IMG/VR virus record: IMGVR_UViG_3300022752_003600
Span: 306 to 64,305 of that record
Direction: 5' to 3' (one strand)
DNA from: a virus
Lineage: Duplodnaviria > Caudoviricetes
DNA length: 64,000 nt
The position numbers and the translations under genes are program-made. Within the stretch, counting starts at the first letter, position 1; each line of letters starts with the position of its first letter. The notes beneath the pieces are model-generated. The model was not told the origin of the DNA, searched no databases, and worked only from the letters and a program-made list of their open reading frames with translations. This document shows positions 5,474 to 29,518 of this stretch, piece after piece.

Positions 5474-5478
5474 TTTTA

Positions 5479-9046: not shown

Positions 9047-9102
9047 TATTCTGTGTCTAAGGCAATACTAACAAGACAAGTCATAGTATTGTGTATCTTA
9101 AG

Positions 9103-13150: not shown

Positions 13151-13185
13151 GTCGCTCCGTATGTAGTGTCGTCGTTGCGTATCTA

Positions 13186-13194
13186 ATTGTACCA
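13186..13194 (-). promoter_or_regulatory. Extended -10 promoter (TGGTACAAT)
   Basis: Intergenic TGn-TACAAT upstream of ATG13150. Confidence 0.55.
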
Positions 13195-13220
13195 CGGCGC
13201 GCGCCGAATCTGAGGAAGAC

Positions 13221-14777: not shown

Positions 14778-14975
14778 CTACCTCTCTGTGATCCGCAGCC
14801 GCACTGTCACGGTTGCCTTGTACTCTTTTTCTGAGTGCTCTTCTACCTTAAACTCGCTGTCGTGCGGCAACGAGGCCTCGCTGTCGCCGACAAACTCGCG
14901 CCACTGCTTGACAGCCTGCTTCTTAAGCGCATCAAAGTCGCTGCCATACACCGTCATAGACACACTTCCAATCAT
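14778..14975 (-). CDS. Small hypothetical protein
   Basis: TAATG coupling with the upstream gene; fills the operon. Confidence 0.65.
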   Translation of the reverse strand: MIGSVSMTVYGSDFDALKKQAVKQWREFVGDSEASLPHDSEFKVEEHSEKEYKATVTVRLRITER

Positions 14976-15394
14976 TACTTGATCCTCTTTTCAAGCTTGT
15001 GCGGCGAGTGGTGTGTTCCGTCGAGAAAAGGCACTTTTTCATCCGTTGACCTAAAGATGACGTCGCCGTAGCGCACCGCGACGACCTTTCCGACGCGCCC
15101 GTTGTGCAGCGTGCCGAGCTTTCCTTCATACGCGTCGTGCCTAACCCGCACGATGTCGCCGACTGATATCGCCCCCGGTCTAGCCTCGACCCACACTTCT
15201 TCTGACGCGTCTTGAAGCAGCGAGTGCGCCACGGCGAGCTTGCTAAGCAGCGACAGCACCTCGGCAGAGTCTTTGTCGGCGTGTTTTAGGTCTTTCCACG
15301 CCTCGAGTAGCGCCATGACTGACGCTCCAACCGACTTTTTTGCCCGCACACTTGCGAGTTGCGCGCTAGCCCAGTCAAGGTCAACGTGTTTCAT
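14975..15394 (-). CDS. Hypothetical protein with SH3/KOW-like C-terminus
   Basis: VGDIVRV...GRVGKVVAVRYG; operon packing. Confidence 0.65.
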   Translation of the reverse strand: MKHVDLDWASAQLASVRAKKSVGASVMALLEAWKDLKHADKDSAEVLSLLSKLAVAHSLLQDASEEVWVEARPGAISVGDIVRVRHDAYEGKLGTLHNGRVGKVVAVRYGDVIFRSTDEKVPFLDGTHHSPHKLEKRIK

Positions 15395-15863
15395 CTTTGC
15401 TCCTTTGTGGACATGCTTGTTCTCTGCAGCTTTCAGTGTCGTAGTCGTCGAGCGCTCGTGCGCATAGTTGGCACTTCACGCCGGCGTCAAGGACCTTGTA
15501 GCCTTTCTTTTGGCGGTCTGCGTTCTTTTGCATCTTTGCCAGGTACTCAGCGTTGAGCTCCTCGTCGGTCCCGCCGACGGCGCAGATGATGTTCGCGACA
15601 AAGTGCAATACATCGACGCACTCTTTAAGTACCTCGCGGCGGTCAACATACGGGTCGTCGTGCTGCCAAGGCTTCCACGAGATGGCCTTGCGCACCTCGG
15701 CGAGCTCATCGTCGATCGCGAGCATGTTCCACCGCAGGTACTCAATGACAGCGCGCAGCGAATCATGGTCATCGCTGTGAAGCTTTGCGTAGTCAACGTT
15801 GTAGCAGTCTTGCTGCAACTTAGATGTTGCCTCAAGCCACTTTCCGAATAACTTATCAGTCAT
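15381..15863 (-). CDS. All-alpha dNTP pyrophosphatase (dimeric dUTPase/dCTPase, MazG-like)
   Basis: DELAEV...WKPW...ECVDVLHF...KMQKNADRQ motifs as in dimeric dUTPase/T4 gp56-type enzymes. Confidence 0.8.
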   Translation of the reverse strand: MTDKLFGKWLEATSKLQQDCYNVDYAKLHSDDHDSLRAVIEYLRWNMLAIDDELAEVRKAISWKPWQHDDPYVDRREVLKECVDVLHFVANIICAVGGTDEELNAEYLAKMQKNADRQKKGYKVLDAGVKCQLCARALDDYDTESCREQACPQRSKDETR

Positions 15864-16875
15864 GTTTGTCAATCACCTGTCGTAGTGTTTCTAATGCTTC
15901 TTCTCTAGAAGGTATCTTATCTAGATATTCGCGAGATTGGTGAACCGAAAGTTCGTATGCGTCTAACCTACTCATGTTTTCAATCCTCGCGGCGAGGACG
16001 GCCCATGACGGGCCAGCCGTGTTGCTATACTTCCACTCTGTGACCACAGGAGTACCGACGTTGAGTGACTTCACAAATAGCGGCGACCACCAAGGCCTCT
16101 TGTCGTCGTGAATCGTAAGTATCACGCCGAGTAGCGAGCCGATCTTTTTCTTGACTTCTGCTCCAGACATGTGCTTTTTGTCTTTGATGCCAGAGTGCGG
16201 TAGTCCAAGTGTGTGCGCGATAGACCTTGCCCATCGAGTAGACGTTAGGTCGATCCCCCACGCTCGAGTCCTCTCTCGTTGTAGCGCTTCTGTGCCAGGT
16301 TGGCGCGTGTAGAGCGCGTCAAACGACAGCCCGACAAGCGAGTGCTTTAAGCCGTCTCTTACTCCGACAATGTCGGACGCGTCTTTGTACCACGGAAGCG
16401 TCGGCCACAGTGTCGTAGGCCACTTCGCAGTTAGAAGGCCGAGAGCAGACTCAATGACTCGTTCTTTTGCGCCTTCATCGGCCAGTGCCAAGCTGTACCC
16501 GCTTCTTCGAGAGTAAAAAGGCTTAAACAACTTCTGTGGGTCACGCTGGATCGACCTAAGCCCGGCAAATATCTTTCCAGGCTCAGGAGCGTCAATGAAC
16601 AGCGCGAGTCTTTCATCTCCACGCAGCAACGATGCGACGTTAAGTGCGCCATAGACTCCGTTTGACGACACGCTTAGCGGTGAGGTCAAGCCTACAAACA
16701 CCTTGTCATATTCTGCGAGGTCATCAAGTGTCCATGACACGTCTGCTTCTGCCTGCACGACCTCGTACCCTAGTTGGCGGACAGCGTTTGCCAGCATTCC
16801 GGCATACGTAAGCGCGCGCTGCGCTACAGATGACGAGTAGTGCTGCGCACTGGTACCAGTGACTAGCACTTTCAC
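15856..16875 (-). CDS. GT-B-like putative DNA/nucleotide glycosyltransferase
   Basis: MKVLVTG...LGYEVVQ...DLAEYDKVFV N-lobe and WWSPLFVKSLNVGTPVVT C-lobe; lies beside a nucleotidyltransferase. Confidence 0.55.
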   Translation of the reverse strand: MKVLVTGTSAQHYSSSVAQRALTYAGMLANAVRQLGYEVVQAEADVSWTLDDLAEYDKVFVGLTSPLSVSSNGVYGALNVASLLRGDERLALFIDAPEPGKIFAGLRSIQRDPQKLFKPFYSRRSGYSLALADEGAKERVIESALGLLTAKWPTTLWPTLPWYKDASDIVGVRDGLKHSLVGLSFDALYTRQPGTEALQRERTRAWGIDLTSTRWARSIAHTLGLPHSGIKDKKHMSGAEVKKKIGSLLGVILTIHDDKRPWWSPLFVKSLNVGTPVVTEWKYSNTAGPSWAVLAARIENMSRLDAYELSVHQSREYLDKIPSREEALETLRQVIDKHD

Positions 16876-17633
16876 GACTGCGCCTCTTCGATCGCGGCCT
16901 CAAACGCCGCGGGGACACCGACATCCATCGCGTTGACGTCAAACAGGTGGGTTGGGTACCTAAGTATGTCTGTTAGATACGGTCCGATCTTCAGCTCTCC
17001 CGCTGTTTGACCGCGTTCTTTCCACGCATATGAAAGTACATTACGTGCGCGGTGCGTGTCCATCACCACAGGACCGCACCACACGACCGCCAACGGCATC
17101 GCCGCTGTAGGATCAACAAAGTCACTGTCTTCTAGAGCAGCGCCTTCAGCAAACTCGTACATCAAGTCTCTGGTAATGCCGTCTGACCACCTGTTTCTCA
17201 CTCTAGTAAACCGATGAGCCTGTGTTTTTGGCACCGTGCGCGTGCCGACGGCATTTGAGTTAGAGATCTCAGTTGTTACTGCCATGTCAACTACTTTTTC
17301 TTGGTCCATGATGTTGTCACTCATGAGCAGCATCACACGCTTTGAGTCGCCAAGCGCGTTGATACCGACAAGCGCCGCGTGTCCCGGCCCGCGCGGCTCG
17401 TCTTGGACAACGACCTGTACCCACGACGAGTATGGCTCGAGGACTTTCTTGACCTGCGTGATGTTGTGTGGTGAGACAACTACGATAGTCTTCTCTGCGC
17501 CGGCAGCTGCCGCGTATTCGGCCGCGTAGGCCAGCAACGTGATGCCGTTAACCTCAAGAAGCGGCTTAAAGAACGGCATCGAGTATCCCAGCATGCGCTG
17601 GCCTCTTCCCGCGGCGAGGATCACTGCGTCCAC
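16872..17633 (-). CDS. Sugar-phosphate nucleotidyltransferase (NTP_transferase)
   Basis: AVILAAGRGQRM...KPLLEV...QDEPRGPGHA...LMSDN...DVG. Confidence 0.9.
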   Translation of the reverse strand: MDAVILAAGRGQRMLGYSMPFFKPLLEVNGITLLAYAAEYAAAAGAEKTIVVVSPHNITQVKKVLEPYSSWVQVVVQDEPRGPGHAALVGINALGDSKRVMLLMSDNIMDQEKVVDMAVTTEISNSNAVGTRTVPKTQAHRFTRVRNRWSDGITRDLMYEFAEGAALEDSDFVDPTAAMPLAVVWCGPVVMDTHRARNVLSYAWKERGQTAGELKIGPYLTDILRYPTHLFDVNAMDVGVPAAFEAAIEEAQS

Positions 17634-18136
17634 GGCCACTCCTGTCGCGCCCACACGAACTTCCAGCCAGCCTCACGCGCCGGTGCCTGCCCGTCGATCC
17701 TGTCATCAATGTAGACTCCAGTCACTGCCACTTTTTTGAGGATCGCGACGCGCTCACTCGTCGACACGCTACCGGCTAATAGCGCGCCTGGCGTAAGCCC
17801 TAAGGCCTCAAGAACGGCCTCGGCCGCGTCGCGAGCGGCTCCGGTGACGTACGTCACGTCGCCAGGAAACACGCGCTCAAGCGCGAGCAAGATGTCGGCG
17901 TACGGAAGCTTGTTCTCGAGCGCCGCGCCTGACTTGATCACGTCTACGTACACGAGCGTCTTCTCACTGTGCACCCTGCGCGCGTCCTCAAGCGAGCCAA
18001 CTGCGGACGGAAGCCACATCTGCCACGGATGTCCCCACGCCTCATCTGGCATGTTGACGCCAACTTTCTTGTACGCCTCGCGGACGAGGTGCCTCGAGTT
18101 TACGAGCACGCCGTCAATGTCTGAGCACCACTTCAT
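17621..18136 (-). CDS. HAD-superfamily phosphatase
   Basis: MKWCSDIDGVLV (DxD), YVTG, YIDD...G...AREAG; ATGA overlap with the upstream gene. Confidence 0.85.
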   Translation of the reverse strand: MKWCSDIDGVLVNSRHLVREAYKKVGVNMPDEAWGHPWQMWLPSAVGSLEDARRVHSEKTLVYVDVIKSGAALENKLPYADILLALERVFPGDVTYVTGAARDAAEAVLEALGLTPGALLAGSVSTSERVAILKKVAVTGVYIDDRIDGQAPAREAGWKFVWARQEWPWTQ

Positions 18137-18912
18137 CTGTAAAAACCTCCTGCTTGAAGTGCCTTTGATAGTACCGCAGACACTGCGCCAAGCGACGCCG
18201 GTGCTTGTCTCTTGACGTAGGGTATCGCGCGGATGACGTGGACTACGGCCCACGCCTGGCCCGCAACAAACAGGTCTTTGTCTGCAACAGCCTGCTCTAC
18301 ATCTTCGACAGAGTACGCTCTCCACTCGCGCCTGTACTTTGCCTCTTCCCAGCCGTAGGCGCTCTGCAGCATCTTGCCGACGTCGACGCACGGCGAGTCT
18401 GGCACAGTCAGTGTTGCGGGTATCGGGTCAATGAGCACAGGACCAAACCCACGCCTGTACATCACGTTCTCAGCAGTCGCGTCCCCATGCGACAGCGCCG
18501 GTTGCGCCGACAGCGCGGCCTCATAAGCTCGCTCGGCGGCCGCAAGCGCGGCGTCGACATGCGCTGTAGACAGGTGCAGACCGCTGTTTTCTAGGTTGCG
18601 CGTGACCTTGCTGCGCAAAAGCTCACGGGTCTCTTGTGCCGCCGGCTGAGTTGCCGGCGCGTCCCAGACGTACCTACGAAGCAGCGAGACCACGTCTGCA
18701 GCACGCACCTCAGCCGGTGACATGTGGTCAAGCCGCTCCATGACGTAGCCGTCACCCGTCAGCTCAAACACCAGCGGAAGTGCAGGCGAGGTGTTTTCCA
18801 TGATCCAGCGCCCTTGTTCGATCGTCTTCTCGACGATCCCACCTCGCTTCGTGACCGTTGCCTTATTGTTCTCGACGACGACGGCTCCAGAGAGGCCGCT
18901 GTTCATGCTCAC
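18133..18912 (-). CDS. APH/choline-kinase-like phosphotransferase
   Basis: GLSGAVV loop, YVME, HGDATAENV (Brenner motif), LIDP, DVGKMLQS. Confidence 0.8.
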   Translation of the reverse strand: MSMNSGLSGAVVVENNKATVTKRGGIVEKTIEQGRWIMENTSPALPLVFELTGDGYVMERLDHMSPAEVRAADVVSLLRRYVWDAPATQPAAQETRELLRSKVTRNLENSGLHLSTAHVDAALAAAERAYEAALSAQPALSHGDATAENVMYRRGFGPVLIDPIPATLTVPDSPCVDVGKMLQSAYGWEEAKYRREWRAYSVEDVEQAVADKDLFVAGQAWAVVHVIRAIPYVKRQAPASLGAVSAVLSKALQAGGFYR

Positions 18913-20156
18913 GAAAACGCGCTCTCGATCATGACCTGAGCTGTTTTCTTTGGGTCGTTTCGCGTGCGCAACACCTCACGGTTGTGGCGCGCGATCTCAG
19001 CACGCTCAGCGTCGGGAATCTCGAGACACGTCATGAACGCGTCGGCGATCTTTTGGATCAGTTCTAGGCCTTCAGCTTGAACTAGTCGCGACTGCGTTGG
19101 CGACTTTGTGTACCAGTCGAGCACCATCATGCGAAACTGAGGATCTGATAGGTGCCCAGGAACGATGCACATCGCACCAGCGTCTGCGGCCTCAAGAGAT
19201 GAGTATTCGACTAAGCCGCGCGCAAACGCGTGCGCGGTCAAGTTCATGTGGACCTTGAACCGTGAAGCAATTGCCGCAGAGTCAGTGTAGTTGCCTAGGT
19301 AGCGCACAAGCGCCTTACCAGGGACACGCGCGTCCCAGGGATACGGCGTGACGATGTTTCCGTCCATGCTTCCGTTAAACTTCTCAGGGTTGACGACCTT
19401 CGCGTACCTCTTGACCTGCGCTTTAAAGTGATCTTTGAGGATCTCATAGACAATGTATGTCGGCGAAGGCCCTAGGCCGACTGAGCACGATCCCCAGACC
19501 TCAACTGTTACGTCTTCTGGCAAGAAAGCGCCGGCCAGGGCGACGAGTGGCTGTCCCTTGTTGTAGATAAACCGACCAGACGTCCCGACGACACGCTCAT
19601 TTGGTATCGGAGCGTCAATGTCAAACTGCGGGATGTACGGCATCGGTCCCTTGATCCACTCCATCGAGGCAAACAAGTCATTGCTGTGCTTCGCGGACTC
19701 TTCGCTCATCGTCACAAGCTTGCTTCCTCGCGACGGAGACTCGAGCAGCTTCTTGACAAACGGGATGTCTTTCTCTGGGTAAAACGAACCGTGGAGTGCC
19801 GTAGTCCACCTCGCCTTCGTGCGAAGCAGCGCGTCTACATACTCTGGTATCGCGTCTTCACCCTTCTTGATCGCCTGCTTGTCGTGCAGCGGAATCTTGA
19901 TCTCTGGAAGCACGACCATGTCATACTTATCCAGTGTCTCGACGATGTTCGCTGTCTTTACGACGACGTCAGGGGCCTCGCTCCACCACCTGCCGCCCGG
20001 CTGTGGCTTGCCCCACGCCGAGCGAGTCTTTCCGCTCTTTGTGAATGACACGACATCACAGTCGTGTCCAAGTTCTTTGAATCCGTGACGAAGCCTGAAC
20101 GCCCAGGCAGTCGGTCCTTTGACTCCTGGTTCTGGCTCAAAAACTGCGACTTTCAT
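18909..20156 (-). CDS. GT-B glycosyltransferase resembling phage DNA alpha-glucosyltransferase
   Basis: GRFIYNKG and VEYSSLEAADAG motifs; the latter recalls the T4 Agt EYTHLE.GA.G segment (from memory). Confidence 0.65.
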   Translation of the reverse strand: MKVAVFEPEPGVKGPTAWAFRLRHGFKELGHDCDVVSFTKSGKTRSAWGKPQPGGRWWSEAPDVVVKTANIVETLDKYDMVVLPEIKIPLHDKQAIKKGEDAIPEYVDALLRTKARWTTALHGSFYPEKDIPFVKKLLESPSRGSKLVTMSEESAKHSNDLFASMEWIKGPMPYIPQFDIDAPIPNERVVGTSGRFIYNKGQPLVALAGAFLPEDVTVEVWGSCSVGLGPSPTYIVYEILKDHFKAQVKRYAKVVNPEKFNGSMDGNIVTPYPWDARVPGKALVRYLGNYTDSAAIASRFKVHMNLTAHAFARGLVEYSSLEAADAGAMCIVPGHLSDPQFRMMVLDWYTKSPTQSRLVQAEGLELIQKIADAFMTCLEIPDAERAEIARHNREVLRTRNDPKKTAQVMIESAFS

Positions 20157-20200
20157 GGTGTCTCTCCTAGTTGTTACGTACCTTGTCTAATTTTGACACG

Positions 20201-20238
20201 AAAAGACGCGCCCCGGTGTTACCGGAGCGCGCCTTTTT
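20201..20238 (-). terminator. Intrinsic terminator after the SSB gene (possibly bidirectional)
   Basis: Minus strand GGCGCGCTCCGGT-AAC-ACCGGGGCGCGTC-TTTT, with A/T tracts on both sides. Confidence 0.75.
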
Positions 20239-20258
20239 CGCGTAAAGTGCGGGCTAGC

Positions 20259-20801
20259 TCAGAACGGAGCTGCCGGAGGCGTGTTTGGGTTAGCCGCTCC
20301 TGCTGCCGCTGCTGCCGGTGCCGGTGCCGGTGCCGGTGCCGGTGCCGGTGCCGGTGCCGGTGCCGGTGCCGGTGCCGGAGACGCCGAAGCGACCGCAGGG
20401 ACCGAGTAGTACGACTTGATCTCGTTCTTCTTCTGACCCTGCCAGGTGCGCGTGCCGACCGCCGCGCGGAAGGTGCGACCCTTCAGTGCTGCCTCGATCT
20501 GCGCGTTGGTCGGGTTTGACGTGAAGTACTCACGCGGAAGCCCGAGTGCGGCCATCTTCTTGAAGAACATCCCAAGCGCGTTGGGGTTGTCAGTGGTGAC
20601 GACAAGGTTGTCCCAGACAAGCCGCTTGGCGTGCGCGCCGGTTTGAACCTGCGCCTTGACGGCGAACATGGTCTTTCCGGTCTGCGTCACCTTTGCGACT
20701 GCTTCGACGACCTGGAGGTCGTAGTCGCCGTCTGGCAGCGGGTCGTACCCGCCCGTGTCGGCTGCGTCCTTGATGAGGTCGCCCCAGTTGAGTGATGACA
20801 T
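20259..20801 (-). CDS. DUF669-type ssDNA-binding protein
   Basis: YDPLPDGDY...RLVWDNL...NEIK; Pro/Ala tail ending in PF; directly downstream of the AAA recombinase gene. Confidence 0.8.
   Translation of the reverse strand: MSSLNWGDLIKDAADTGGYDPLPDGDYDLQVVEAVAKVTQTGKTMFAVKAQVQTGAHAKRLVWDNLVVTTDNPNALGMFFKKMAALGLPREYFTSNPTNAQIEAALKGRTFRAAVGTRTWQGQKKNEIKSYYSVPAVASASPAPAPAPAPAPAPAPAPAPAPAAAAAGAANPNTPPAAPF
20313..20378. repeat. Perfect (TGCCGG)11 microsatellite encoding (PA)11
   Basis: Direct count in the sequence. Confidence 0.95.
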
Positions 20802-20803
20802 TG

Positions 20804-21592
20804 TTACTTGCTCGCTTTCTCTGTTGTTGTTGTTGTTTTTTCTTGCTTTTGTTCTGGCCGTGGGCCGAACACTATCTCGAGCATCCTCTCAATTCCGAGG
20901 TCTTGCTGCTCGACAACTTTACCCAGCCGTCCCTGCACGCGCTCGCCGGCCTCGAACTTGCTCGTTCGCTCGACGTACATGCGGCGCGCCTTGTACGGCG
21001 GCTGCGTCGGGTCTGGGTGTGGGAACTCTTCAACCGTGATCGCACCGAGGACGTCGTAGAAGTACGGCGCCTGGATCGCGAGCTGGCCCTGGAGGTATGG
21101 ACGAGCGCGCCCGTCCTGCCCGGTGCGAGACATCGCGGTCAGCACAACCGCCTCAAGAGGCGCGGTCGGGTGCATCGTCAAGTCGCGGAGGTCGCGAAGC
21201 AGCGCGCCCATGTGGCGAAGAAGCTCGCCCCACTGCTGCATCTGCATCTGGTTTGTTCCGGCGATGTTGTCCACGCACTTGACCTGGAGCTCCGATACGG
21301 AGTCAATGATCAGCGACTTGAACTGGTGACGTCCGAGCTGGAGCCACTGGTACGCCTTCATCATCGTGTCATACTTGGTGATGTTGACGACGCAGGTGTC
21401 CCACGTCCCGTCAGCCACCGGCGGCTCCTCGCGTAGAGGGTCCCAGTACTTAACCGTGATTGGAAGAAAGCGGTGGCCGCCCTCTACGTCGAGCATAAGC
21501 CGCGGGTACGGTGCTGTGACCGCAAACGTCGACTTGCCGACCTTTGATTCTCCGTACACCATGAGTGTAAGAGAACGTTGGACATTTGTCAT
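20804..21592 (-). CDS. AAA_24/Sak4-like ATPase recombinase
   Basis: Walker A YGESKVGKST, LDVEGG, Walker B LIIDSVSE. Confidence 0.8.
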   Translation of the reverse strand: MTNVQRSLTLMVYGESKVGKSTFAVTAPYPRLMLDVEGGHRFLPITVKYWDPLREEPPVADGTWDTCVVNITKYDTMMKAYQWLQLGRHQFKSLIIDSVSELQVKCVDNIAGTNQMQMQQWGELLRHMGALLRDLRDLTMHPTAPLEAVVLTAMSRTGQDGRARPYLQGQLAIQAPYFYDVLGAITVEEFPHPDPTQPPYKARRMYVERTSKFEAGERVQGRLGKVVEQQDLGIERMLEIVFGPRPEQKQEKTTTTTEKASK

Positions 21593-21594
21593 GT

Positions 21595-22521
21595 TTACTC
21601 GTTTCCTTTGGTCTCTGATTTGTAATAGCCGTACGGGTCGTCGACCACGTACATTTCGCTGATTGCCTGCTCGGCGGCGGAACCGTCGTCGAGCAGCGGG
21701 CATACAGCGAAAAATTGGCACTTCCACTTGCAGTCGCGGCTCGGCCGCGGGTACGCAAGCGTCGTGTGATCTCCGCCCTCTTCAAGCCCTTTGCGGACCC
21801 TGAGGAGGTCAGTGATCGTGCCATGAATCCTATTCCAGAAAGAGCGCAAACTGAAGATGTTGTGCCGCACTTCAATCTGGTCGTAAAACGGCGGGCGCGC
21901 GTTAGCAGTCCGCTTGACCTTACGCAGCATCGTAAAGATGCCGCCGTCACAGCGCTCGGTCTCGTCTTTCTTTTGCGCTTCAAGAAGCATGTACGTAAGC
22001 ACTTGCTCGTTCATGTGCGCCATGCTTGTGAAGTCAGCAAACGAGCCGCCGACTGTCTTGAAGTCACGAAACATGCGGACGCCGTCAGCCTTGCGGCGGA
22101 CACGCATGTCGAGCTTTCCTTGCAGCTCGACCTGGCCGTCAAGTAGAGTCGCGCTGACGACCTCTTCACTCGAGATGAACTCGAGCTCGGCGTCAATGCC
22201 GTTTTCTTCAACCCAGCCGAGGTACCCTTCGAGCATGATCCGGCCAAGTTCTGCCTCAGATTGCAGGTCGACCGTGTCGCGGAAGCCCTCAATAAGCAGC
22301 TGCTTGTCGCGTTCGACGAGCTCGGCGTGCGCATCGAGTAGCGGCACCCCGTTTGCGTAGTACTGCTCAAACGCTGAGTGAATGCGCGTGCCGAGCGCGA
22401 GCGGGCCGACCATCTGCTTTTCCCTCGGCTGCAGCCGCCTGAAGTACGTTAGCCACCAGCGGCGCCGGCAGTCTTTAAACGTCTGAAGCTCGCTGTTAGA
22501 TACTTTGAGTGGTTGTGTCAT
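21595..22521 (-). CDS. PD-(D/E)xK RecB/Cas4-like exonuclease
   Basis: SNSEL..FKDCRRRW, GTRIH, GKLD...DFKT, C-terminal CKWKCQFFAVC. Confidence 0.85.
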   Translation of the reverse strand: MTQPLKVSNSELQTFKDCRRRWWLTYFRRLQPREKQMVGPLALGTRIHSAFEQYYANGVPLLDAHAELVERDKQLLIEGFRDTVDLQSEAELGRIMLEGYLGWVEENGIDAELEFISSEEVVSATLLDGQVELQGKLDMRVRRKADGVRMFRDFKTVGGSFADFTSMAHMNEQVLTYMLLEAQKKDETERCDGGIFTMLRKVKRTANARPPFYDQIEVRHNIFSLRSFWNRIHGTITDLLRVRKGLEEGGDHTTLAYPRPSRDCKWKCQFFAVCPLLDDGSAAEQAISEMYVVDDPYGYYKSETKGNE

Positions 22522-24317
22522 AGCTTACCTGCCTTGTCTTCTTTGAGCATGCTGAGCAGCTTGTCCTTGTCTCGGACTATCTGCTCGAAGTTGTCTGCCT
22601 TTGTGTCAAGCACCTGGATCACGCGCTCCTCAACGGTGCCTTCGGTCACGTAGTCAGTGATGATGACGCTGTCGTGGATCTCTGACCCGATGCGGTGGAC
22701 GCGGTCAAGTGCCTGCTTGTGGTCGACCAACGACCAGGGACGTTGAAGCATGATCAACCTACGCGCCGCGGTGAGTGTCACGCCTACGCCGCCAGCCTGC
22801 GCCGTAAACAAGATCCACTTCGTCCTGCCTGACTGAAAGTCGTCGATAGACCGCTGGCGCTCTTCTTCATTTTGCGCGCCGGTGATGAGTCCGTGTTCGA
22901 TGCCAGCCTTTGTCATGGCCGCGCTTAGCAACTCAATAAGCTGCCGCGACACGGCGCATACAGCGACTGAGTCGCTGCCGAAGTCGCCACTCTCGATGTC
23001 GTCCATCAGCGCGTCAACCTTGCACGACGGCTCGGCGAGCACCGCTCGCACCTCGCCAGTCTCTGTGTCGGCGACCATGTCAGCATACGAGCTTGCAAAC
23101 TGAAGCAAGCGCGTCACCTGTGTAAGCGGGCTTGTCGCCATCAGCGCGGCACCGCTCTCAAGCTCGGCGATCATGAGGTCACGCATCTGCGAGTAGGCCT
23201 TGGCCTGTTTTGACGACATCTCGACGTCACGGCGCTCATTTATGACTGGCGGCAGCCAGTGCAGCACCTTCGCCTTGAGCATGCGCCGCATACGCGGGTT
23301 GATGCTTGCGTAAAACTCCTGCTCCATCTGTGGCTTGACGCCGAGGACCATCATGCCGCCGAACGCGTTAAGCATCGTGTTGATCATGCGGTCGATCCAG
23401 CGCGTCTTGCTCGGCCACTCTTCTGGAGACAGCCAGTGCAAGATAGGCCACAGGTCGACGACGTCATTCGCGATCGGCGTGCCGGTCAGCGCAAACCGGA
23501 TGTCTGCGTCACCTGTTGCGGCCCACAGCGCACGCGTCTGCTTTGACTTTGGATCCTTTGACCGGTGTATCTCGTCTGCGACGACGGCCTTGAAGTCAAT
23601 CGCGTTAAGTTCGCGCGGTGTGACCTCGCACTGCTTTTCAGTGACGCTGTCATCGTGGCCACCCATCGCGACACAACGTTTAAGGGCGATTGAGCCGTAG
23701 GGAGCGAGACGCGAGTGAGCGCGCAGCGACTCCCAGTTGATGACATAGACATCAGCGCCAGACTCAAAAGACTTTCGCCGCTGCGTCGCCGTTCCAGAGA
23801 TGACCTCGACATTCACACTTGGCCACCAGCGCGCAAACTCGCGCTTCCAGTTCTTTTTCACCGTGTTCGGGCACACGACCAACGCTGGAAACACCTGCTC
23901 GCCTGCGTCTTGAAGGGCCTTAAGCGCGCGGATCGCCTGCGCGGTCTTGCCCAGGCCTGGCTCGTCGGCGAGCAACGCACGGCGTGCGACCTTGAGAAAC
24001 TGGACACCGGCGCGTTGGTGAGGAAACAAGTCTTCATCGCCATCGGCTTCTTCGAGCTCGCGCAGTTTGTTAGCTGGCTCGACTCGAGATGTAAGCTCGC
24101 TGGTCGCCCACGCGGTGAGCGACTGTCCGATGACGAGCTCGGTCTTGAACGTCGACCTCAGCGCGAGGCAGGTAGACCAGCTTAGCGGGACGCTCCAGAC
24201 CTTATCTGTCGTCGACCACTTTGCCCCTGGGATGCTCTTGCAAAGCTCCTTGTAGCGCCAGTCGGCGTCAATGCGGATGTGTTTTCCGTCTTTGTCGATG
24301 TCAACTAATACTGTCAA
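22518..24317 (-). CDS. SNF2-family helicase/ATPase
   Basis: DEPGLGKT, DEIH, LTGTP, GGVGVTLT, QALDRVHRIG. Confidence 0.92.
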   Translation of the reverse strand: MTVLVDIDKDGKHIRIDADWRYKELCKSIPGAKWSTTDKVWSVPLSWSTCLALRSTFKTELVIGQSLTAWATSELTSRVEPANKLRELEEADGDEDLFPHQRAGVQFLKVARRALLADEPGLGKTAQAIRALKALQDAGEQVFPALVVCPNTVKKNWKREFARWWPSVNVEVISGTATQRRKSFESGADVYVINWESLRAHSRLAPYGSIALKRCVAMGGHDDSVTEKQCEVTPRELNAIDFKAVVADEIHRSKDPKSKQTRALWAATGDADIRFALTGTPIANDVVDLWPILHWLSPEEWPSKTRWIDRMINTMLNAFGGMMVLGVKPQMEQEFYASINPRMRRMLKAKVLHWLPPVINERRDVEMSSKQAKAYSQMRDLMIAELESGAALMATSPLTQVTRLLQFASSYADMVADTETGEVRAVLAEPSCKVDALMDDIESGDFGSDSVAVCAVSRQLIELLSAAMTKAGIEHGLITGAQNEEERQRSIDDFQSGRTKWILFTAQAGGVGVTLTAARRLIMLQRPWSLVDHKQALDRVHRIGSEIHDSVIITDYVTEGTVEERVIQVLDTKADNFEQIVRDKDKLLSMLKEDKAGKL

Positions 24318-24343
24318 CTTAGTCCCTCAATCATTCGTCATTC

Positions 24344-24354
24344 ACTGTACCACA
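24344..24354 (-). promoter_or_regulatory. Extended -10 promoter (TGTGGTACAGT)
   Basis: AT-rich intergenic gap upstream of the helicase gene. Confidence 0.5.
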
Positions 24355-24409
24355 TACTAGGAAGATTTTGATGATCTCCAGCAAATATTTTTCTTAGTAC
24401 ATAAGCTCT

Positions 24410-24880
24410 TTACTCAAGAAGTACTCTTGGCACCCAGCCGGTCTTGGCTAGCCGCAGCAGGCCGTGGCGCATCGCGTCAAGCGCGTGTCCGCCACCGCCG
24501 ACGTGCCAAAAACCGAGCTTCTTCAACGCGTCGTTGGTAAACAGCTTCTTGGCATCAGATGGCGACTGAAAGTAGATCTTTTCGGGGTCAAGACCGCTGC
24601 TGTGCACTACGTACTTCATGATGCCGATCTGCTCAAGGCTAAACGGAGCCTGCGAGTTCTTGATTGTCTGCGCGTTGATGACGAAGCGCTCACACACGAC
24701 GTCTATCGACGCTCCGGCCTCTTTTGCGGCCTTGATCTCGTCACTAAGAGCCATCGCGAACGCATATGGCCCAAGCTCGCGAGACACCAATAGCGCCGGC
24801 GACTCTCCAGCGTACGTGATGACGGCGAACCCTGTGGTCTTGCCAGGGTCGATCGCGATGACTGTTTTTGCTTGTTTCAC
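24410..24880 (-). CDS. RuvC-like Holliday junction resolvase
   Basis: IAIDPGKTTG...VVCE...HALDA; GTGA overlap with the polymerase stop. Confidence 0.8.
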   Translation of the reverse strand: MKQAKTVIAIDPGKTTGFAVITYAGESPALLVSRELGPYAFAMALSDEIKAAKEAGASIDVVCERFVINAQTIKNSQAPFSLEQIGIMKYVVHSSGLDPEKIYFQSPSDAKKLFTNDALKKLGFWHVGGGGHALDAMRHGLLRLAKTGWVPRVLLE

Positions 24881-26697
24881 TTGTACTTGTCTCCCCATGT
24901 CTCGAGCGGGCCGTCGATTCCCGCCGTCAGCGGGACGTTCCAACCTTCAGTTGTAGTCATGCAGTCTTTTACAATGTGCTTGATCTCTTCTGCGTCCTTG
25001 CGCGGCGCGTTGAGCACGATTTCGTCGTGCACCGGCACGATCAGCAGCTCGGTGAGGTCCGCCTGGTCGAGCTTGACGAGGTTTGCTTTGAACACCTCGG
25101 CCGCGCCGCCCTGGATCAGGTAGTTGACCAGCGTGTACACGCGGTCCTCATCGCACGGCAGGCGGCGGCCGGTCCATGTGTAGACGTATCCCTGTCCCTC
25201 TTCACGGACACGGCGCATCCCGGCGTCTTCAATCTGCCGCTGAAACATCGACATCCCAGGGTACCGCCCGTCGAACGCGTCTGACACCTCTCTCATCTGC
25301 GGCTCGGCGACGCCCGCGGTGAGCGCCTGCTTTGCGACGCCGGCGCCATACAGGCGACCGTAGACCGTGCCCTTGATGAGCGCACGGCGCTTGTCTGACT
25401 TTTGCATTGTCGGGTCTCTATAGATCTCTCGGCCGATCTCGGTAAACGGGTCAGACCCTGTTGCGTCGGCGCGGTTGAACAGTGTGATGAGGTTTGGGTC
25501 GTTTGACAGGCTCGCAAACATGCGGAACTCGACCTGGTCGAGGTCCGACGTGATGATGACGTGGTCATCATCCTTAGGCAAGAACGCGCGGCGGACGACG
25601 TCGTCTCCTTTTGGCAGAGTCTGAAGCGCTGGGTTTTGGATCGACATGCGGCTCGTGCGAGCGCCGAGCGTCTTCACAGACGGGTGGACAAACCCGCCGA
25701 CGTTTTCGCTCAAGAAGTTCGAGAAATATGTGTTGGCGAGCTTGTCGGCCTTGCGCTGCTTCAGGACTGTGTCGGCGAGCGTTGACACTTCCTCATTTCC
25801 GTTGATCTTGAGCAGCTTGAGTTGATCTTTGGTGCATGATTTTTGCCCAGTCGGCGTAAACTCGGTGATCTCGGCGCCGAGGTCCTCGAACAAGCGCACG
25901 AGCTGCTGGTTGCTCGTGATCGACACACCGCCATACTTGCCCTTGGCCCACTCTTTGACGGTTGCTGTATATGCGGTGAGCTCGTCGTACTTTTTCTTCG
26001 AGTACTCAAGGTCGACGCGTGCACCGTTGATCTCCATGCGCGTCACGATCTTTCTCGCGGCCATCTCGAGCTCGTAGGCGCGGCTATACGGCTTGCCAGG
26101 GCCGCATTTTTCGTAGAACATCTCCCACAGGCGCATCGTCAGCACCGTGTCGAGCGCGCCGTACGACCAGTACGGCTGAAACGTCACCGGAACAGTGCCC
26201 CACGTCCACCCGTTCTTTGCGAGCTCTGTGTCTAGCGTGTCTTGTAATGCGACGGCGCGGCCGTCGACGTGCAGTGCGGCAAGCCGCTTAAGCGCCCCCG
26301 ATCCAAGCGGGTCAATGATGTGCGCCATGATCATCGTGTCGTGCGCGCGGCCCCACGGCAGGCCCCAGCGTGACTGTACGTCAAACCAGCGGGCCTCGAA
26401 CGCGATGTTGTGGCACACGATCGGGCCGTCAAACCTGTCCATGGCCTCGTAGAAGACGCCAGACCACTCTCCCCACGGGATCGCCCAGCCCTGCTGCCCG
26501 TCGCCAACCTGTACGAGGCGCAGTCGACCGTGCCACGGAGACAGCGCGTGTTCTCTAGGGTTGCCTGGAAGCTCACCGGTCTCAGTGTCAATCGCGATCG
26601 CGCCGTGCGGCCTACGCTCACTGAGCCAAGCGACGAATTCAGACGCCTTCTGCGCTGAGTCTACCAGTGAAAGCTTGACGCTGGAGAGGTCGCTCAC
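24877..26697 (-). CDS. polA: Family A DNA polymerase with 3'-5' exonuclease
   Basis: DTET, HNIAFE, DLDQVEFR (motif A), R...K...YG (motif B), NYLIQG, VHDE (motif C). Confidence 0.95.
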   Translation of the reverse strand: MSDLSSVKLSLVDSAQKASEFVAWLSERRPHGAIAIDTETGELPGNPREHALSPWHGRLRLVQVGDGQQGWAIPWGEWSGVFYEAMDRFDGPIVCHNIAFEARWFDVQSRWGLPWGRAHDTMIMAHIIDPLGSGALKRLAALHVDGRAVALQDTLDTELAKNGWTWGTVPVTFQPYWSYGALDTVLTMRLWEMFYEKCGPGKPYSRAYELEMAARKIVTRMEINGARVDLEYSKKKYDELTAYTATVKEWAKGKYGGVSITSNQQLVRLFEDLGAEITEFTPTGQKSCTKDQLKLLKINGNEEVSTLADTVLKQRKADKLANTYFSNFLSENVGGFVHPSVKTLGARTSRMSIQNPALQTLPKGDDVVRRAFLPKDDDHVIITSDLDQVEFRMFASLSNDPNLITLFNRADATGSDPFTEIGREIYRDPTMQKSDKRRALIKGTVYGRLYGAGVAKQALTAGVAEPQMREVSDAFDGRYPGMSMFQRQIEDAGMRRVREEGQGYVYTWTGRRLPCDEDRVYTLVNYLIQGGAAEVFKANLVKLDQADLTELLIVPVHDEIVLNAPRKDAEEIKHIVKDCMTTTEGWNVPLTAGIDGPLETWGDKYK

Positions 26698-27176
26698 TTA
26701 GAACTACGTTCTGGAATCGCGCGGACTTCAAGTCCGCACTTCTTTAGGTATACGATAACCTCGCTTGGCTTACGGTGAAAGTCGACATCGCGCACAACCA
26801 TGACCACACGAGATACTCCAGAGTTCGACACAAGCTTCGCGCACTGTATGCAGACCGCGCCTGTCACGTATAGTGTTCCGCCTTCGACCTGGGACCTGTC
26901 GACATAGAGCAGCGCGTTTGCCTCGGCGTGTATCGCGGGACAGGCGTCGTATGTATTGTCCAACGGTGCGTCGCCCTGCGCACGCGGGCACCAGAACGAG
27001 CACGGTCGCTCGTCTGGCCACGTCGCCGCCGGGCCGTTGTACCCAGTCGCGCAGATGCGTTGGTTCTTTGACACGATAACAGCGCCGATCTGCGCCCGCG
27101 TGCAGCGCGATCTGCGAGCGACGGCCTTGGCGACGTTAAGCCACGTCTCGTCCCAGTTCGTGCGGTCAGGAAGCAT
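26694..27176 (-). CDS. dCMP deaminase
   Basis: RSRCTRAQIGAVIV...TGYNG...HAEANA...CIQCAK; start reassigned to ATG27176. Confidence 0.9.
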   Translation of the reverse strand: MLPDRTNWDETWLNVAKAVARRSRCTRAQIGAVIVSKNQRICATGYNGPAATWPDERPCSFWCPRAQGDAPLDNTYDACPAIHAEANALLYVDRSQVEGGTLYVTGAVCIQCAKLVSNSGVSRVVMVVRDVDFHRKPSEVIVYLKKCGLEVRAIPERSSK

Positions 27177-28023
27177 TTTTCTCGTTCTTTGCGATCGCGC
27201 TACGCATCGCCGAGGCGTACCACCTGTCCTCAGCCGGCAGAGACTCGTACACAGCGTCGTCGTGCGCGGCGTCGAGGCACTTGACGGCGCGCGCCTGGAT
27301 CGCGCTCCACGACCGGGCGACAAAGACGGGTATCGGCTTGCTCGGCTCCGACGCGTAGGACAAGTTTTCCGCGGCGGCAAAGTTGTTCTCATAGACATGC
27401 AACGAGCCGACGTGGTGGCCGTAGGTGCCTGGCTCGATACCGAGGATAGACGCGATCGCGACCTGCACGCGTGTGAACTGGAAGAAGTCATAGGCTGCGC
27501 CAAGCCACACGTCGTTTGAGCGCATGTAGACGCTCATGTTGAGCCTGTTCTTTCGGACTCGAAACTGGTGAAGTATCGTGCACGGGTAGTCGCGCTTCTT
27601 CTCGAGCATGTCACGCTCGGGATTCCAGATGGTGACGACCGCCTGACGCGACTCGGGGTCTTTCTTGAGGCGGTCGACCACGACCTCGTACTGGCCGAGC
27701 GTCCGCGTTCCGTACGAGCCGTGAAACTGCCCGTCATCCTCGGTGTAGTTCGCAAACTGCGGGCCGACGGCGACTACCGTCTTCGGCCGCGACACGCCGC
27801 CGAGCAGCTGGCACGCCTCAACCGCACCGATCCCTGAGACGACGTTGCGGCCGACGCCGACCGGCAACGTATTGTATACGTCCTCGATGAAGATCATCGC
27901 GTCCTCGATCTCGCGCGTCTTCATGCCGCGCGGCGCGGCCTCCTCGCCGTAGCGAAGGACGTGCCTGACGAGGTCAACGTATCCGTTGACGCCGTCTTGT
28001 ATGTGTATCACCTTAGTGTCCAT
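27166..28023 (-). CDS. Thymidylate-synthase homologue, predicted dCMP-modifying enzyme (hydroxymethylase-like)
   Basis: SRQA, DYPCT, MRSNDVWLGAAYD, GSLHVY. Asp occupies the position of E. coli ThyA Asn177. Confidence 0.8.
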   Translation of the reverse strand: MDTKVIHIQDGVNGYVDLVRHVLRYGEEAAPRGMKTREIEDAMIFIEDVYNTLPVGVGRNVVSGIGAVEACQLLGGVSRPKTVVAVGPQFANYTEDDGQFHGSYGTRTLGQYEVVVDRLKKDPESRQAVVTIWNPERDMLEKKRDYPCTILHQFRVRKNRLNMSVYMRSNDVWLGAAYDFFQFTRVQVAIASILGIEPGTYGHHVGSLHVYENNFAAAENLSYASEPSKPIPVFVARSWSAIQARAVKCLDAAHDDAVYESLPAEDRWYASAMRSAIAKNEKNAS

Positions 28024-29009
28024 GGGTCTACCTCCATGTGTGTTGTGGATAACCGTTCAATCGCGCGGCCGTACTCATAGCCGTCGCGGTGGTGGAACCT
28101 GCGCACGTACTGCGGGTGCGGGACGACGTTGACCAACTCGCGCGGTATCGACGCGTCTTTGAGGCTCTTCTCGGCCATGCGCCCGAGCGCAACTATCCGC
28201 GGTCGCCCTATGGTTGCCCACAGCAACGACATCCGCGAACCACAAAGCTCGGTGCCGTTGACGATACCGACGTTCTTCCAGAACGGATCTGGGAGGTGCG
28301 TGAGCAGGTAGTCACCTGAGTTGCCGCGCGCGGGGAAGAACGGAAGTATCGGTCCGTTAGGGTCATTGCGCCTGTCACCGACGAGCAGCACGCTTGGCCT
28401 TGCCGGGCCGATGTACTCAGGAAACTGCGCAACATTCTTGACCTGTGCCTCGCGCTCTTTTGCGATCGTAAGCATGCGGTCTGCGAGAGCAGGCAACGCT
28501 GACATGTCATATGGATCCGGCGAGACGACCTCGACGCGGGCCGCGTTGCGCATACCGAAGTCATACAGCTCGCATATCTTTTCAAGTTCGGACGTCTTGA
28601 CAAAGTCGTCACCGCGTACGCCGACACGCTCGACGATGACGTCAAGCGGCTGCTTCATCACAAACTGCACAGCGCCACGCGACAACAACATGAGCTCAAC
28701 GAGCCGCCAGCCGCCCTTGCCGAGCAGGCCGTATTCGTCCGTGCATGTGTGCGGACGCTTGATCGGCGCGTACGTGACCTCGCCCCAGTGCCACCTGTCG
28801 GCGATCACGATGTAGCCGTCTGTCCAGTTGACGTTTGCGACCGAAGTTGCCCACTCATTCAAGACCCACGCCCTGGTCTCCTCGGCCGGCCTACCCATGT
28901 GGTACGTCACAACCTCGCGGTCGGAAAACATGGAGGTCGCGCGCTCGATGAGCGCGGACACGACCGAACTCTTGCCTGAGCCGTCAGGGCCTTCAACAAC
29001 TATAAACAT
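28008..29009 (-). CDS. dNMP kinase fused to a UDG-like domain
   Basis: EGPDGSGKS P-loop and DRWH; C-terminal VLLVGD...PF...SG.YL...IVALG...HPQY. Confidence 0.75.
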   Translation of the reverse strand: MFIVVEGPDGSGKSSVVSALIERATSMFSDREVVTYHMGRPAEETRAWVLNEWATSVANVNWTDGYIVIADRWHWGEVTYAPIKRPHTCTDEYGLLGKGGWRLVELMLLSRGAVQFVMKQPLDVIVERVGVRGDDFVKTSELEKICELYDFGMRNAARVEVVSPDPYDMSALPALADRMLTIAKEREAQVKNVAQFPEYIGPARPSVLLVGDRRNDPNGPILPFFPARGNSGDYLLTHLPDPFWKNVGIVNGTELCGSRMSLLWATIGRPRIVALGRMAEKSLKDASIPRELVNVVPHPQYVRRFHHRDGYEYGRAIERLSTTHMEVDPWTLR

Positions 29010-29041: not shown

Positions 29042-29518
29042 CTACGGAATAAGCTCAACCTTGTAGATCATCTCAATCCCCTTGTCGTTCCGCGCGGCCT
29101 CCTCTAGAAGCCGCTGCGCGACGTGGGTCAGGTACTTTGCGCCGCTTGCGTCATACTTGTAGAGCGCGTCGAGCACCGCGCTCGGCTCCTCGCTGACCTG
29201 CGCCCAGTAACGGTTCTTTTCAGGAAACACGACTGGCGCATTGAGAGATGGCCTGCATTCCGGGCAGACGATCAGCCTTTCTGGATTTTCTACCTCGGCT
29301 GTCGCGACCTCTTCAAGCCCGTAGCGCTGCACGAGGTGGCACGCGCCGGTGTGGTACATTACGGACACACCAACACGAGAGAGGACGTATGAGCCGTTTT
29401 CTGTCCGGTACAGGTCAAACTCGATCCAGCGGTTAGCGCCTGGACGACTTGAAGAAGAGTGGCCAAGCAGCTTGCCGCTGAACTGCAGTGTTCTTGAGCC
29501 GTCTTTTACCTGGATCAT
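29042..29518 (-). CDS. Hypothetical phage protein (possible Zn site H..C...CPEC)
   Basis: Full ORF with ATGA coupling. Confidence 0.7.
   Translation of the reverse strand: MIQVKDGSRTLQFSGKLLGHSSSSRPGANRWIEFDLYRTENGSYVLSRVGVSVMYHTGACHLVQRYGLEEVATAEVENPERLIVCPECRPSLNAPVVFPEKNRYWAQVSEEPSAVLDALYKYDASGAKYLTHVAQRLLEEAARNDKGIEMIYKVELIP

Follow-up and report, generated by a model that had tools for sequence, protein, structure and literature searches.

The window analyzed here is a stretch of 64,000 nucleotides, positions 306 to 64,305 of the IMG/VR virus record IMGVR_UViG_3300022752_003600. It encodes a thymidylate synthase (TS) homologue with the active-site residues of T4 gp42. It also encodes other enzymes of nucleotide metabolism, two proteins of the GT-B glycosyltransferase fold, and a putative module for a nucleoside diphosphate (NDP)-sugar. 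On balance we favor a T4-style pathway in which cytosine is replaced before replication and the DNA is then glycosylated. An initial annotation of the sequence had described a complete pathway for glycosylated cytosine. Its interpretation is the best reading of the region, overstated as "complete": that word is unfounded, as the record is a 64,305-bp fragment, without terminal repeats, that is estimated to be 48% complete. The open reading frames (ORFs) that it named are all present, and all are on the minus strand.

The TS homologue (27166..28023, minus strand) is a predicted deoxycytidine monophosphate (dCMP) 5-hydroxymethylase, that is, a 5-hydroxymethyl-dCMP (5hm-dCMP) synthase. It matches Pfam Thymidylat_synt at 2.9e-26, and its best solved relative is the MilA CMP hydroxymethylase (8e-24). 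It contains MRSNDVWLGAAYD, which is the RSND-x3-G-x3-D motif. In E. coli ThyA numbering it carries Asp143, Cys146, Ser167, Asp169, and Asp177. The aspartate at the position of ThyA Asn177, to which the initial annotation had pointed, is seen in alignments to MilA, ThyA, T4 gp42, and RB69 gp48. Residues were compared in 96 aligned sequences, the window and 95 loci, and some of these loci overlap within a single record. The 95 include T4 gp42 and RB69 gp48 as extracted from the genome sequences of the two phages. The set of five residues was found in 95 of the 96 sequences, including T4 gp42 and all actinophage relatives. The sole exception was RB69 gp48, with Glu143, Gln168, and Asn169. Cys146, Ser167, and Asp177 were each present in 96/96. 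A further alignment (A4) contained the window protein and the full genes of the phage DSL-LC01 and four Gordonia phages. The catalytic glutamate (window E38) and Arg126 are invariant in it.

These residues have been tied to substrate and product. N177D goes with a dCMP substrate, and L143D/E with a hydroxymethyl rather than a methyl product, the acidic residue admitting water, according to PMC13326640. The same paper gives D169N as the mark of 5-hydroxy-dCMP synthases (type of RB69 gp48 and DLP3 gp80), and all those reported there as tested have Asn. Ser167 and Arg126 are linked to a deoxyribonucleotide rather than a ribonucleotide substrate, and Asp177 to cytosine (as described in PMC5175136). 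The window protein reads MRSND around position 169, against MRSQN in RB69 gp48 (Asn169). Because it has the full gp42 signature without Asn169, it is predicted to make 5hm-dCMP. A 5-hydroxycytosine route was rejected on Asp169. Judged by current criteria from its residues, the protein would not be a hydroxylase, a methylase, or an ordinary thymidylate synthase. We are fairly confident that the TS gene, taken alone, encodes a dCMP hydroxymethylase. The background given by the initial annotation for RB69 arabinosylation needs correction, since RB69 and DLP3 DNA carries arabinosylated 5-hydroxycytosine, made via a flavin-using TS homologue, and not 5-hydroxymethylcytosine (5hmC), as described in 2026 (PMC13326640). 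Its T4-type 5hmC reading holds for the window and is better founded than by Asp177 alone, because the D169N signature is absent. Residues 143, 167, 169, and 177 offer a cheap test for sorting phage TS homologues into producers of methyl, hydroxymethyl, and hydroxy groups.

The TS gene is part of a replication-side operon on the minus strand. It runs from a kinase fusion through the TS homologue, dCMP deaminase, and PolA to a RuvC-like gene. Adjacent genes overlap by 16 nt (kinase/TS), 11 nt (TS/deaminase), 4 nt (deaminase/PolA), and 4 nt (PolA/RuvC-like). The dCMP deaminase (26694..27176, minus strand; start corrected to 27176) matches dCMP_cyt_deam_1 at 1.8e-18 and PHROG 174 at 1.6e-44. PolA (24877..26697, minus strand) is a family A DNA polymerase with a 3'-5' exonuclease domain (DNA_pol_A, 7.9e-54; DNA_pol_A_exo1, 1.3e-4).

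The first gene of this operon encodes a two-domain kinase protein of 333 aa (28008..29009, minus strand). Its N-terminal P-loop domain is Tmk/YorR-like and is a candidate 5hm-dCMP kinase. Residues 1-180 match Thymidylate_kin at 6.5e-5, and the TIGR00041 dTMP kinase model was matched at 1.7e-5, below its cut-off. The best solved relative is YorR (2axp/3kb2, 2e-4). The C-terminal domain is ~150 aa and conserved. The protein aligns over its full length in most freshwater relatives and over residues 1-208 only in Godonkavirus loci. It had been described as a fusion of a deoxynucleoside monophosphate kinase with a uracil-DNA glycosylase (UDG). The kinase half of that description stands. The UDG half found no Pfam match at E≤5 and no solved UDG when a profile of 26 homologues was searched against PDB sequences. 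Three shorter stand-alone homologues were matched, none with a Pfam domain. A six-frame search of five records for PF03167 at E≤10 also gave no match (controls, 13/14 positive). A language-model (Atlas) search with the domain returned clusters at scores of 0.89-0.90, and PF03167 was present in 36%, 19%, and 30% of the members of the top three. The "UDG-like" label is an unverified lead from that search.

A recombination and repair block (20259..24880, minus strand) lies between the two modules. By Pfam it encodes RuvC-like, SNF2 helicase, PD-(D/E)XK nuclease, AAA_24 RecA-like, and DUF669 proteins. Its gene order is the same in DSL-LC01, Phendrix, and Kurnik. The DUF669 protein (20259-20801) ends in ~11 alternating Ala-Pro (AP) repeats followed by an alanine-rich tail.

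A gap of 102 nt separates this block from the glycosyltransferase operon, also on the minus strand. It contains GT415, an APH-like kinase, a HAD protein, a nucleotidyltransferase (NT), X339, a MazG-like gene, and a gene for a 139-aa protein. Overlaps are 4 nt for GT415/APH, APH/HAD, and NT/X339, 17 nt for X339/MazG, and 14 nt for MazG/139-aa gene. The HAD and NT genes overlap by 34 nt as called, or by 4 nt with an alternative in-frame GTG start at NT codon 11. The coupling that had been claimed for both operons was thus confirmed, with overlaps of 4-34 nt throughout. Both GT-B genes and the MazG-like gene are in one overlapping operon inside the replication/nucleotide module. In a scan for promoters and terminators, promoter-like sites numbered 2 (expected, 5.1) and terminator-like sites 22 (expected, 16.0). 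Neither count stands out above the shuffled expectation, and the scan was uninformative.

GT415 and X339 are the two TRANSFERASES, and both are without a Pfam family (E≤0.01). At E≤5 the only match for either was Glyco_trans_1_2, at 0.15 for GT415. Profiles of X339 (62 sequences) and GT415 (31 sequences) found no solved glycosyltransferase (GT) among solved-structure sequences, and the folds alone are informative. That both are GT-B proteins, as the initial annotation had it, is upheld by confident AlphaFold (AF2) models and PDB matches. Neither was found by sequence to belong to the T4 alpha- or beta-glucosyltransferase families.

GT415 (18909..20156, minus strand) is a 415-aa GT-B-fold glycosyltransferase of an unannotated family. 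It is proposed to add a second (outer) sugar. It has 61 metagenomic homologues, of which 0 have a Pfam domain. Its AF2 model has a mean confidence (pLDDT) of 94.4 and matches GT-B glycosyltransferases. In a Foldseek search of the PDB, Anabaena HepE was first (1.9e-11), T4 alpha-glucosyltransferase (AGT) 1y8z third (2.9e-11; template modeling [TM] score, 0.55-0.58), and T4 beta-glucosyltransferase (BGT) 1j39 was matched at 1.5e-8. GT415 had been called "Agt-like". This is fair as a statement of fold and does not point to DNA, because the E-values of HepE and AGT are nearly equal.

X339 (15856..16875, minus strand) is a 339-aa GT-B-like protein, also of an unannotated family. It is a proposed base-proximal DNA glycosyltransferase. 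It had no Pfam, NCBIfam, or PHROG match. At E≤1e-3 the family has 275 cluster representatives, of which 119 remain at E≤1e-30. Its AF2 model has a pLDDT of 96.4. Four PDB matches were found at E≤1e-3. All are GT-B enzymes, and two are the glycosyltransferase of phage HY126. That enzyme comes from an arabinosyl-5-hydroxycytosine phage, and its presumed role is drawn from its title and the citing paper (PMC13326640). Neither T4 glucosyltransferase was among the 50 PDB matches listed. Close matches in a viral structure library (TM, ~0.8) included a protein of Gordonia phage Phendrix.

The donor module comprises three genes between GT415 and X339. The APH-fold kinase (18133..18912, minus strand; Pfam APH, 2e-6) is a proposed anomeric kinase for a sugar or sugar phosphate. 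Its HGDxxxxN and IDP motifs are present in 7/7 aligned sequences, and an Atlas search placed it near APH-bearing viral clusters at 0.98-0.99. The HAD-superfamily phosphatase-like protein (17621..18136, minus strand; 171 aa) matches Pfam Hydrolase at 1.6e-3, below the cut-off. It has DxDG, TGA, and DD motifs in 6/6 aligned homologues. The putative sugar-1-phosphate NT (16872..17654, minus strand) matches NTP_transf_3 at 1.4e-14 and NTP_transferase at 1.9e-12. Its solved relatives are GlmU, RmlA, GalU, heptose-1-P guanylyltransferase, and MurU (1e-6 to 3e-3), and its GRGQR loop is conserved. In a metagenomic protein of 683 aa (P0038), GT415 and the APH kinase are naturally fused (kinase part, E 1e-28), which ties the donor module to GT415.

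The initial annotation had seen no sugar isomerase or epimerase. This holds beyond the window. The SIS isomerase family (PF01380) was found in 0/5 records, namely the window, three relatives that are 87%, 64%, and 55% complete, and DSL-LC01, and in 14/14 controls. The NAD-epimerase family was absent from the same five records and present in 14/14 controls. Because both families are absent, the substrate of the donor module is likely to be a common host sugar phosphate. In a known route of this kind, AfhE and AfhF convert arabinose-5-P to UDP-arabinose via a 1,5-bisphosphate (as described in PMC13326640). Direct homology of the module to RB69 gp51/52/53 was considered and rejected. Single pairwise comparisons gave an E of 45 for gp51 (HAD protein), 0.004 for gp52 (APH kinase to its kinase part), and 1e-4 for gp53, too weak for membership.

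The MazG-like protein (15381..15872, minus strand) is a MazG/dimeric-dUTPase-like nucleoside triphosphate (NTP) pyrophosphatase and a candidate dCTPase/dUTPase. It matches dUTPase_2 at 6.2e-12 and PHROG 18650 (dUTPase) at 3.9e-22. Its membership in the all-alpha NTP pyrophosphatase family bears out the earlier dCTPase/dUTPase label in part. The dCTPase role is a guess, and the nearest solved proteins are dimeric dUTPases (4e-4). The conserved 139-aa protein (14975..15394, minus strand) is encoded by the last gene of the operon. It has no family match and follows MazG in related loci.

A C5 cytosine DNA methyltransferase (13221..14468, minus strand; DNA_methylase, 5.9e-21) is conserved beside the module. 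In the freshwater phages, GodonK, and Kurnik, its gene is the second or third past MazG. The homologues in Kurnik and GodonK are 34-35% identical and adjoin MazG and GTs. The window protein contains PPC and a glutamate, which we take to be those of motifs IV and VI. A pyrimidine-dimer DNA glycosylase (Pyr_excise; 12638-13375) is conserved downstream of MazG with the methyltransferase. The gap of 506 nt between the 139-aa gene and the methyltransferase holds an ORF of 97 aa (14482-14775) that matches DUF6378 (5.7e-29). Similar small ORFs fill the same gap in relatives.

The window covers about half the genome of a siphovirus-like phage of Actinobacteria, ~130 kb in full. When the region was compared at the nucleotide level with 50,697 phage records, there was a single partial match, to DSL-LC01 (76% identity over 27% of the query), and this ruled out that the window is an already known phage. 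DSL-LC01, an uncultured 129-kb Actinomycetia phage, is the nearest named relative. It is syntenic with the window across tail, replication, and recombination genes. The window encodes a WhiB-family regulator (11355-11888), and its backbone is common to Gordonia phages GodonK and Phendrix and Micrococcus phage Kurnik. An actinobacterial host fits both observations. At least 112 related loci were found in IMG/VR (112 of the 117 pattern-matched stretches), and several of the contigs are 110-136 kb.

The comparative anatomy of these loci was the most informative result. X339 and then MazG form a fixed end of the operon, and the gene content upstream of X339 varies between relatives. Of 25 loci whose sequence continues past the X339 gene, 24 have a MazG-like gene next to it. 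In the window and its closest kin the upstream cassette is GT415-APH-HAD-NT. The order GT415-APH-HAD-NT-X339-MazG was found in 7/7 loci that read through to MazG, at 38-97% identity. Most relatives instead have a second X339 paralogue of ~400-430 aa upstream of X339. This paralogue (IMG/VR records G005-G041) aligns to the X339 profile in two parts (1-120 and about 103-335), a split that implies an insertion. DSL-LC01 (L002, 16727-19872) has a UDP-galactopyranose mutase between two X339-family genes, before MazG. Its authors describe the mutase as an auxiliary gene for the host cell wall (PMC10611076). We consider it more likely that it supplies UDP-galactofuranose for the same modification pathway rather than for the cell wall.

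X339-family genes were found in 37/40 TS-bearing IMG/VR records and in 4/4 of those that are ≥90% complete. In the other three records the contig stops 4.9-8.6 kb downstream of TS, short of the X339 position. Among the 50,697 phage records, X339 was found in 14, from DSL-LC01 and eight Gordonia phages, which are the phages with the closest TS homologues. Five X339-bearing phages were checked, and all have the same TS residue signature. GT415 was found in one cultured phage only among these records, Micrococcus phage Kurnik, in the same slot. Kurnik (56 kb; L110 9001-13847, L115) encodes a T4-like dCMP hydroxymethylase, of the T4 subtype itself in the 96-sequence alignment, and a GT415 homologue at 35% identity. 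It also encodes two ~250-aa glycosyltransferases, MazG, and a C5 methyltransferase homologue.

One IMG/VR contig (L098; 19,665 bp, 272-8786) lacks much of the region. A 158-aa gene is followed directly by PolA, and the syntenic sites are without the kinase, TS, deaminase, MazG, methyltransferase, and Pyr_excise genes. Because these genes are jointly absent, L098 suggests that they work as one unit. The absent genes could be elsewhere, as the contig is only 19.7 kb. In the window the 158-aa protein (29042-29518) is encoded directly upstream of the kinase. It is conserved, at 66% identity in DSL-LC01 and in other relatives including L098, and has no family. Its Cys motifs are paired (CH..., CPEC) and hint at a zinc site.

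We propose the following pathway. The TS homologue would convert dCMP to 5hm-dCMP. The Tmk/YorR-like kinase domain and a host NDP kinase would raise it to the triphosphate. The MazG/dUTPase-like enzyme would reduce competing dCTP and dUTP, and dCMP deaminase would feed the dTMP branch. The phage PolA would have to accept the modified dCTP and would incorporate 5hm-dC. After replication, X339 may add a first sugar to the hydroxymethyl group from a common host NDP-sugar. GT415 may then add a second sugar from a donor made by the phage itself. For this donor, the APH-fold kinase would phosphorylate C1 of a host sugar phosphate, the HAD protein would remove the other phosphate, and the NT would make the NDP-sugar. 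The outcome would be DNA resistant to restriction enzymes and possibly to other nucleases; attaching sugars to hydroxymethylcytosine is a known way for phages to evade restriction. All of these steps are our proposals, as are the sequence in which the two transferases act and the choice of DNA as acceptor. The gene content, residues, folds, synteny, and co-occurrence on which they draw were observed.

The glycosylated-cytosine reading of the initial annotation is supported by the TS signature, the nucleotide enzymes, the two GT-B folds, and the donor trio; its DNA acceptor is inferred from gene neighborhood and fold. Several other points weigh against the proposed pathway. About half of the genome is unseen. 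The PDB matches of the X339 model are weak (E, 3e-5 to 5e-4; TM, 0.41-0.48). The HAD protein scores 19.3 bits against a Pfam cut-off of 26.4, and by sequence the donor-module proteins appear to have little or no similarity to RB69 gp51-53. The specificity of the MazG-like enzyme is a guess that dUTPase relatives at 4e-4 do not fix. The literature found on DSL-LC01, GMA2, GodonK, Phendrix, and Kurnik held no DNA-modification data.

The main rival explanation is that the TS homologue makes 5hm-dCMP, so that the DNA may carry 5hmC, and that the acceptor for the GT-B enzymes and the NDP-sugar module is not DNA but, for example, virion proteins, polymers of the host envelope, or a small molecule. 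In its AF2 model GT415 appears to resemble cellular GT4 enzymes (HepE, GlgM, MshA, and BshA) as closely as T4 AGT. A separate cluster in the window has three GTs and a sulfotransferase beside Kelch-repeat proteins, and because of this cluster some glycosylation by the phage is surely aimed elsewhere than at DNA. Virion glycosylation is known in mycobacteriophages. L098 keeps a divergent X339-like gene (29% identity), together with the 139-aa gene, without TS. The cell-wall reading of the DSL-LC01 mutase by its authors (PMC10611076) also fits an acceptor other than DNA, as does a metagenomic survey in which ~65% of phage GT contigs are reported without a nearby base-modification enzyme (10.1101/2023.12.21.572611). 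Against this, the GTs of the window are in an operon with MazG inside the replication module and not with the structural genes, which are at 29.7-64 kb, apart from the glycosyltransferase operon. X339 occurs in the phage records only alongside an Asp177-type TS. GT415 recurs in Kurnik with an unrelated T4-like hydroxymethylase, and the mutase in the cassette slot of DSL-LC01 parallels RL38J1, a phage proven to galactosylate its DNA. We consider a non-DNA acceptor unlikely.

A second rival is partial modification, in which sequence-specific 5-methylcytosine (5mC) and hydroxymethylated or glycosylated cytosine form a mixed protection scheme. In each of the three phage groups (freshwater phages, GodonK, and Kurnik) the C5 methyltransferase is conserved beside MazG and GTs. 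This argues against full T4-like replacement of cytosine, which would leave the enzyme without a substrate. The methyltransferase has the PPC and glutamate of the presumed motifs IV and VI, and L098 has lost it along with TS, kinase, deaminase, and MazG. Against this, pathways that act on the nucleotide pool and include an NTP pyrophosphatase normally drive replacement to completion, as in T4. No sequence feature of the window tells the extent of replacement. We think it improbable that the scheme is a mixed one.

The last rival is a base not derived from 5hmC, made by a 5-hydroxy-dCMP synthase, by a dCMP methylase, or through a deaminated product that leads to 5-hydroxymethyluracil derivatives in place of thymine. 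In its favor, the genes for the deaminase and TS overlap, dUTPases are closest to the MazG-like protein among solved structures, and the phage also deals in 5mC, as its C5 methyltransferase shows. T4 also encodes a dCMP deaminase alongside 5hmC. The survey cited above describes dCMP deaminase as a general companion of ThyS-type pathways (10.1101/2023.12.21.572611). The TS fold can host several chemistries, of which 5-hydroxylation came as a surprise in 2026 (PMC13326640). Such a base is very doubtful here, as the window protein keeps Asp169, against Asn in all the 5-hydroxy-dCMP synthases reported as tested, has Asp143 and not the Leu of methyl-forming enzymes, and has the Asp177 that marks cytosine substrates.

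Beyond the T4-style pathway, we put forward a wider proposal only tentatively, and would not expect all of it to hold. It is that a widespread actinophage lineage, comprising ~130-kb freshwater phages and cultured Gordonia and Micrococcus phages, uses X339 as a 5hmC DNA glycosyltransferase and diversifies the outer sugar by cassettes. In the window phage, the three separate donor enzymes, with no isomerase, would turn a common host sugar phosphate into an NDP-sugar new to DNA, for a new disaccharide-5hmC base, and the kinase C-terminal domain and C5 methyltransferase would be working parts. If the predicted modification pathway holds, hypermodified DNA is present in a large family of abundant actinophages from freshwater, and also in Gordonia and Micrococcus phages that are easily grown, which would affect sequencing, cloning, and host-defense matching of such phages. 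Two unannotated GT-B families would gain a function, one of them with 275 cluster representatives. The interchangeable sugar cassettes would be available for studying DNA glycan diversification under defense pressure, and the DSL-LC01 mutase would be reinterpreted. Kurnik is a small cultured phage in which the prediction is testable, as it is in the Gordonia phages GodonK, Phendrix, Sixama, Forza, and GMA2, which have the same TS signature and GT families.

The separate cluster at 15-10854 is lower in G+C (43-48% across 1-8 kb) than most of the remaining window (55-63%). It encodes Kelch-repeat proteins (15-1028 and 1078-3183), a GT1 (3173-4081), a GT2 (6096-6803), a DUF6065 protein (6779-7498), a sulfotransferase (8129-9046), and a GT2-TPR protein (9091-10854). 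An S-adenosylmethionine (SAM) methyltransferase (10844-11362) is also listed with it. The cluster looks like an island for glycan or protein glycosylation and sulfation. At the same position DSL-LC01 has halogenase, GT, and collagen-like genes. The window also contains two very large minus-strand ORFs, 45855-50183 (1442 aa) and 51267-60368 (3033 aa), with no Pfam family. DSL-LC01 has a very large coding sequence (4.9 kb in view; annotated as "ALK tyrosine kinase receptor") near its collagen-like genes.

Literature searches found no report of 5hmC or its glycosides in actinophages, and the papers on DSL-LC01 and GMA2 do not suggest them; supplementary contig lists may contain relatives. To our knowledge, glycosylated 5-substituted cytosines have so far been documented in phages of Proteobacteria (T-even, RB69-like, DLP3, and RL38J1). 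T4 gp42 has the same active-site signature as the window TS homologue (Asp143, Cys146, Ser167, Asp169, and Asp177). The two are only 23% identical, and the window protein is closer to MilA. The T-even system and the window have a common pre-replicative logic. Besides gp42, T4 has the gp1 kinase, the gp56 dCTPase/dUTPase, the cd deaminase, and the alpha- and beta-glucosyltransferases; the window encodes a kinase, an NTP pyrophosphatase of the all-alpha type, a deaminase, and GT-B transferases. T4 AGT ranks among the three best structural matches of GT415. The window kinase is Tmk/YorR-like and not gp1-like, and it has an extra C-terminal domain. Unlike T4, the window phage has its own NDP-sugar genes, a family A polymerase, a C5 methyltransferase, and an actinobacterial host. 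MilA, the mildiomycin CMP 5-hydroxymethylase (PDB 5b6d), has Asp at 143 and 177 like the window protein, but Ala and Lys in place of Ser167 and Arg126, the residues for deoxyribose (PMC5175136).

RB69, DLP3, and HY126 have a TS homologue beside a Tmk/YorR-like kinase and GT-B genes, as in the window (PMC13326640). In the donor route of RB69 and HY126, a kinase of the APH fold works with a HAD phosphatase and a nucleotidyltransferase of the MurU/RmlA type; the window trio follows the same logic, with its HAD phosphatase-like protein as the candidate for the middle role. X339 has the HY126 glycosyltransferase among its best matches of known structure. The RB69-type synthase has D169N. The window protein retains Asp169, so 5-hydroxylation is not predicted. 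AfhE fuses the kinase and nucleotidyltransferase, whereas the window has separate genes with the HAD gene between them. RB69-type systems have an arabinose-5-P (SIS) isomerase, which the window, the 87%-complete relative, and DSL-LC01 lack. Since no SIS isomerase was found in these (controls, 14/14), the window sugar is probably not isomerase-made arabinose.

Rhizobium phage RL38J1 (Pootjesviridae) has hexosylated 5-hydroxycytosine and a UDP-galactopyranose mutase (PMC13326640), the enzyme that DSL-LC01 encodes in the cassette slot of the window. RL38J1 has a D169N synthase, the window has no mutase, and the phages are unrelated. Post-replicative pathways with a methyltransferase, 5mYOX/TET, and GTs (PMC8256090) have a C5 methyltransferase near the GTs, as does the window. 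Unlike them, the window has a nucleotide-level TS route. Tet_JBP (PF12851) had no match in the window and four relatives, but it also had none in 14 control genomes, which makes the search uninformative. In the metagenomic survey, GT-B genes are associated with ThyS, APH phosphotransferases, methyltransferases, and dCMP deaminase (10.1101/2023.12.21.572611). The overall logic is already known from T4, and that of the donor from RB69 and HY126. New here are the phage group, two GT-B families that lack annotation, the arrangement in cassettes, a donor route that is split and free of an isomerase, and the kinase fusion.

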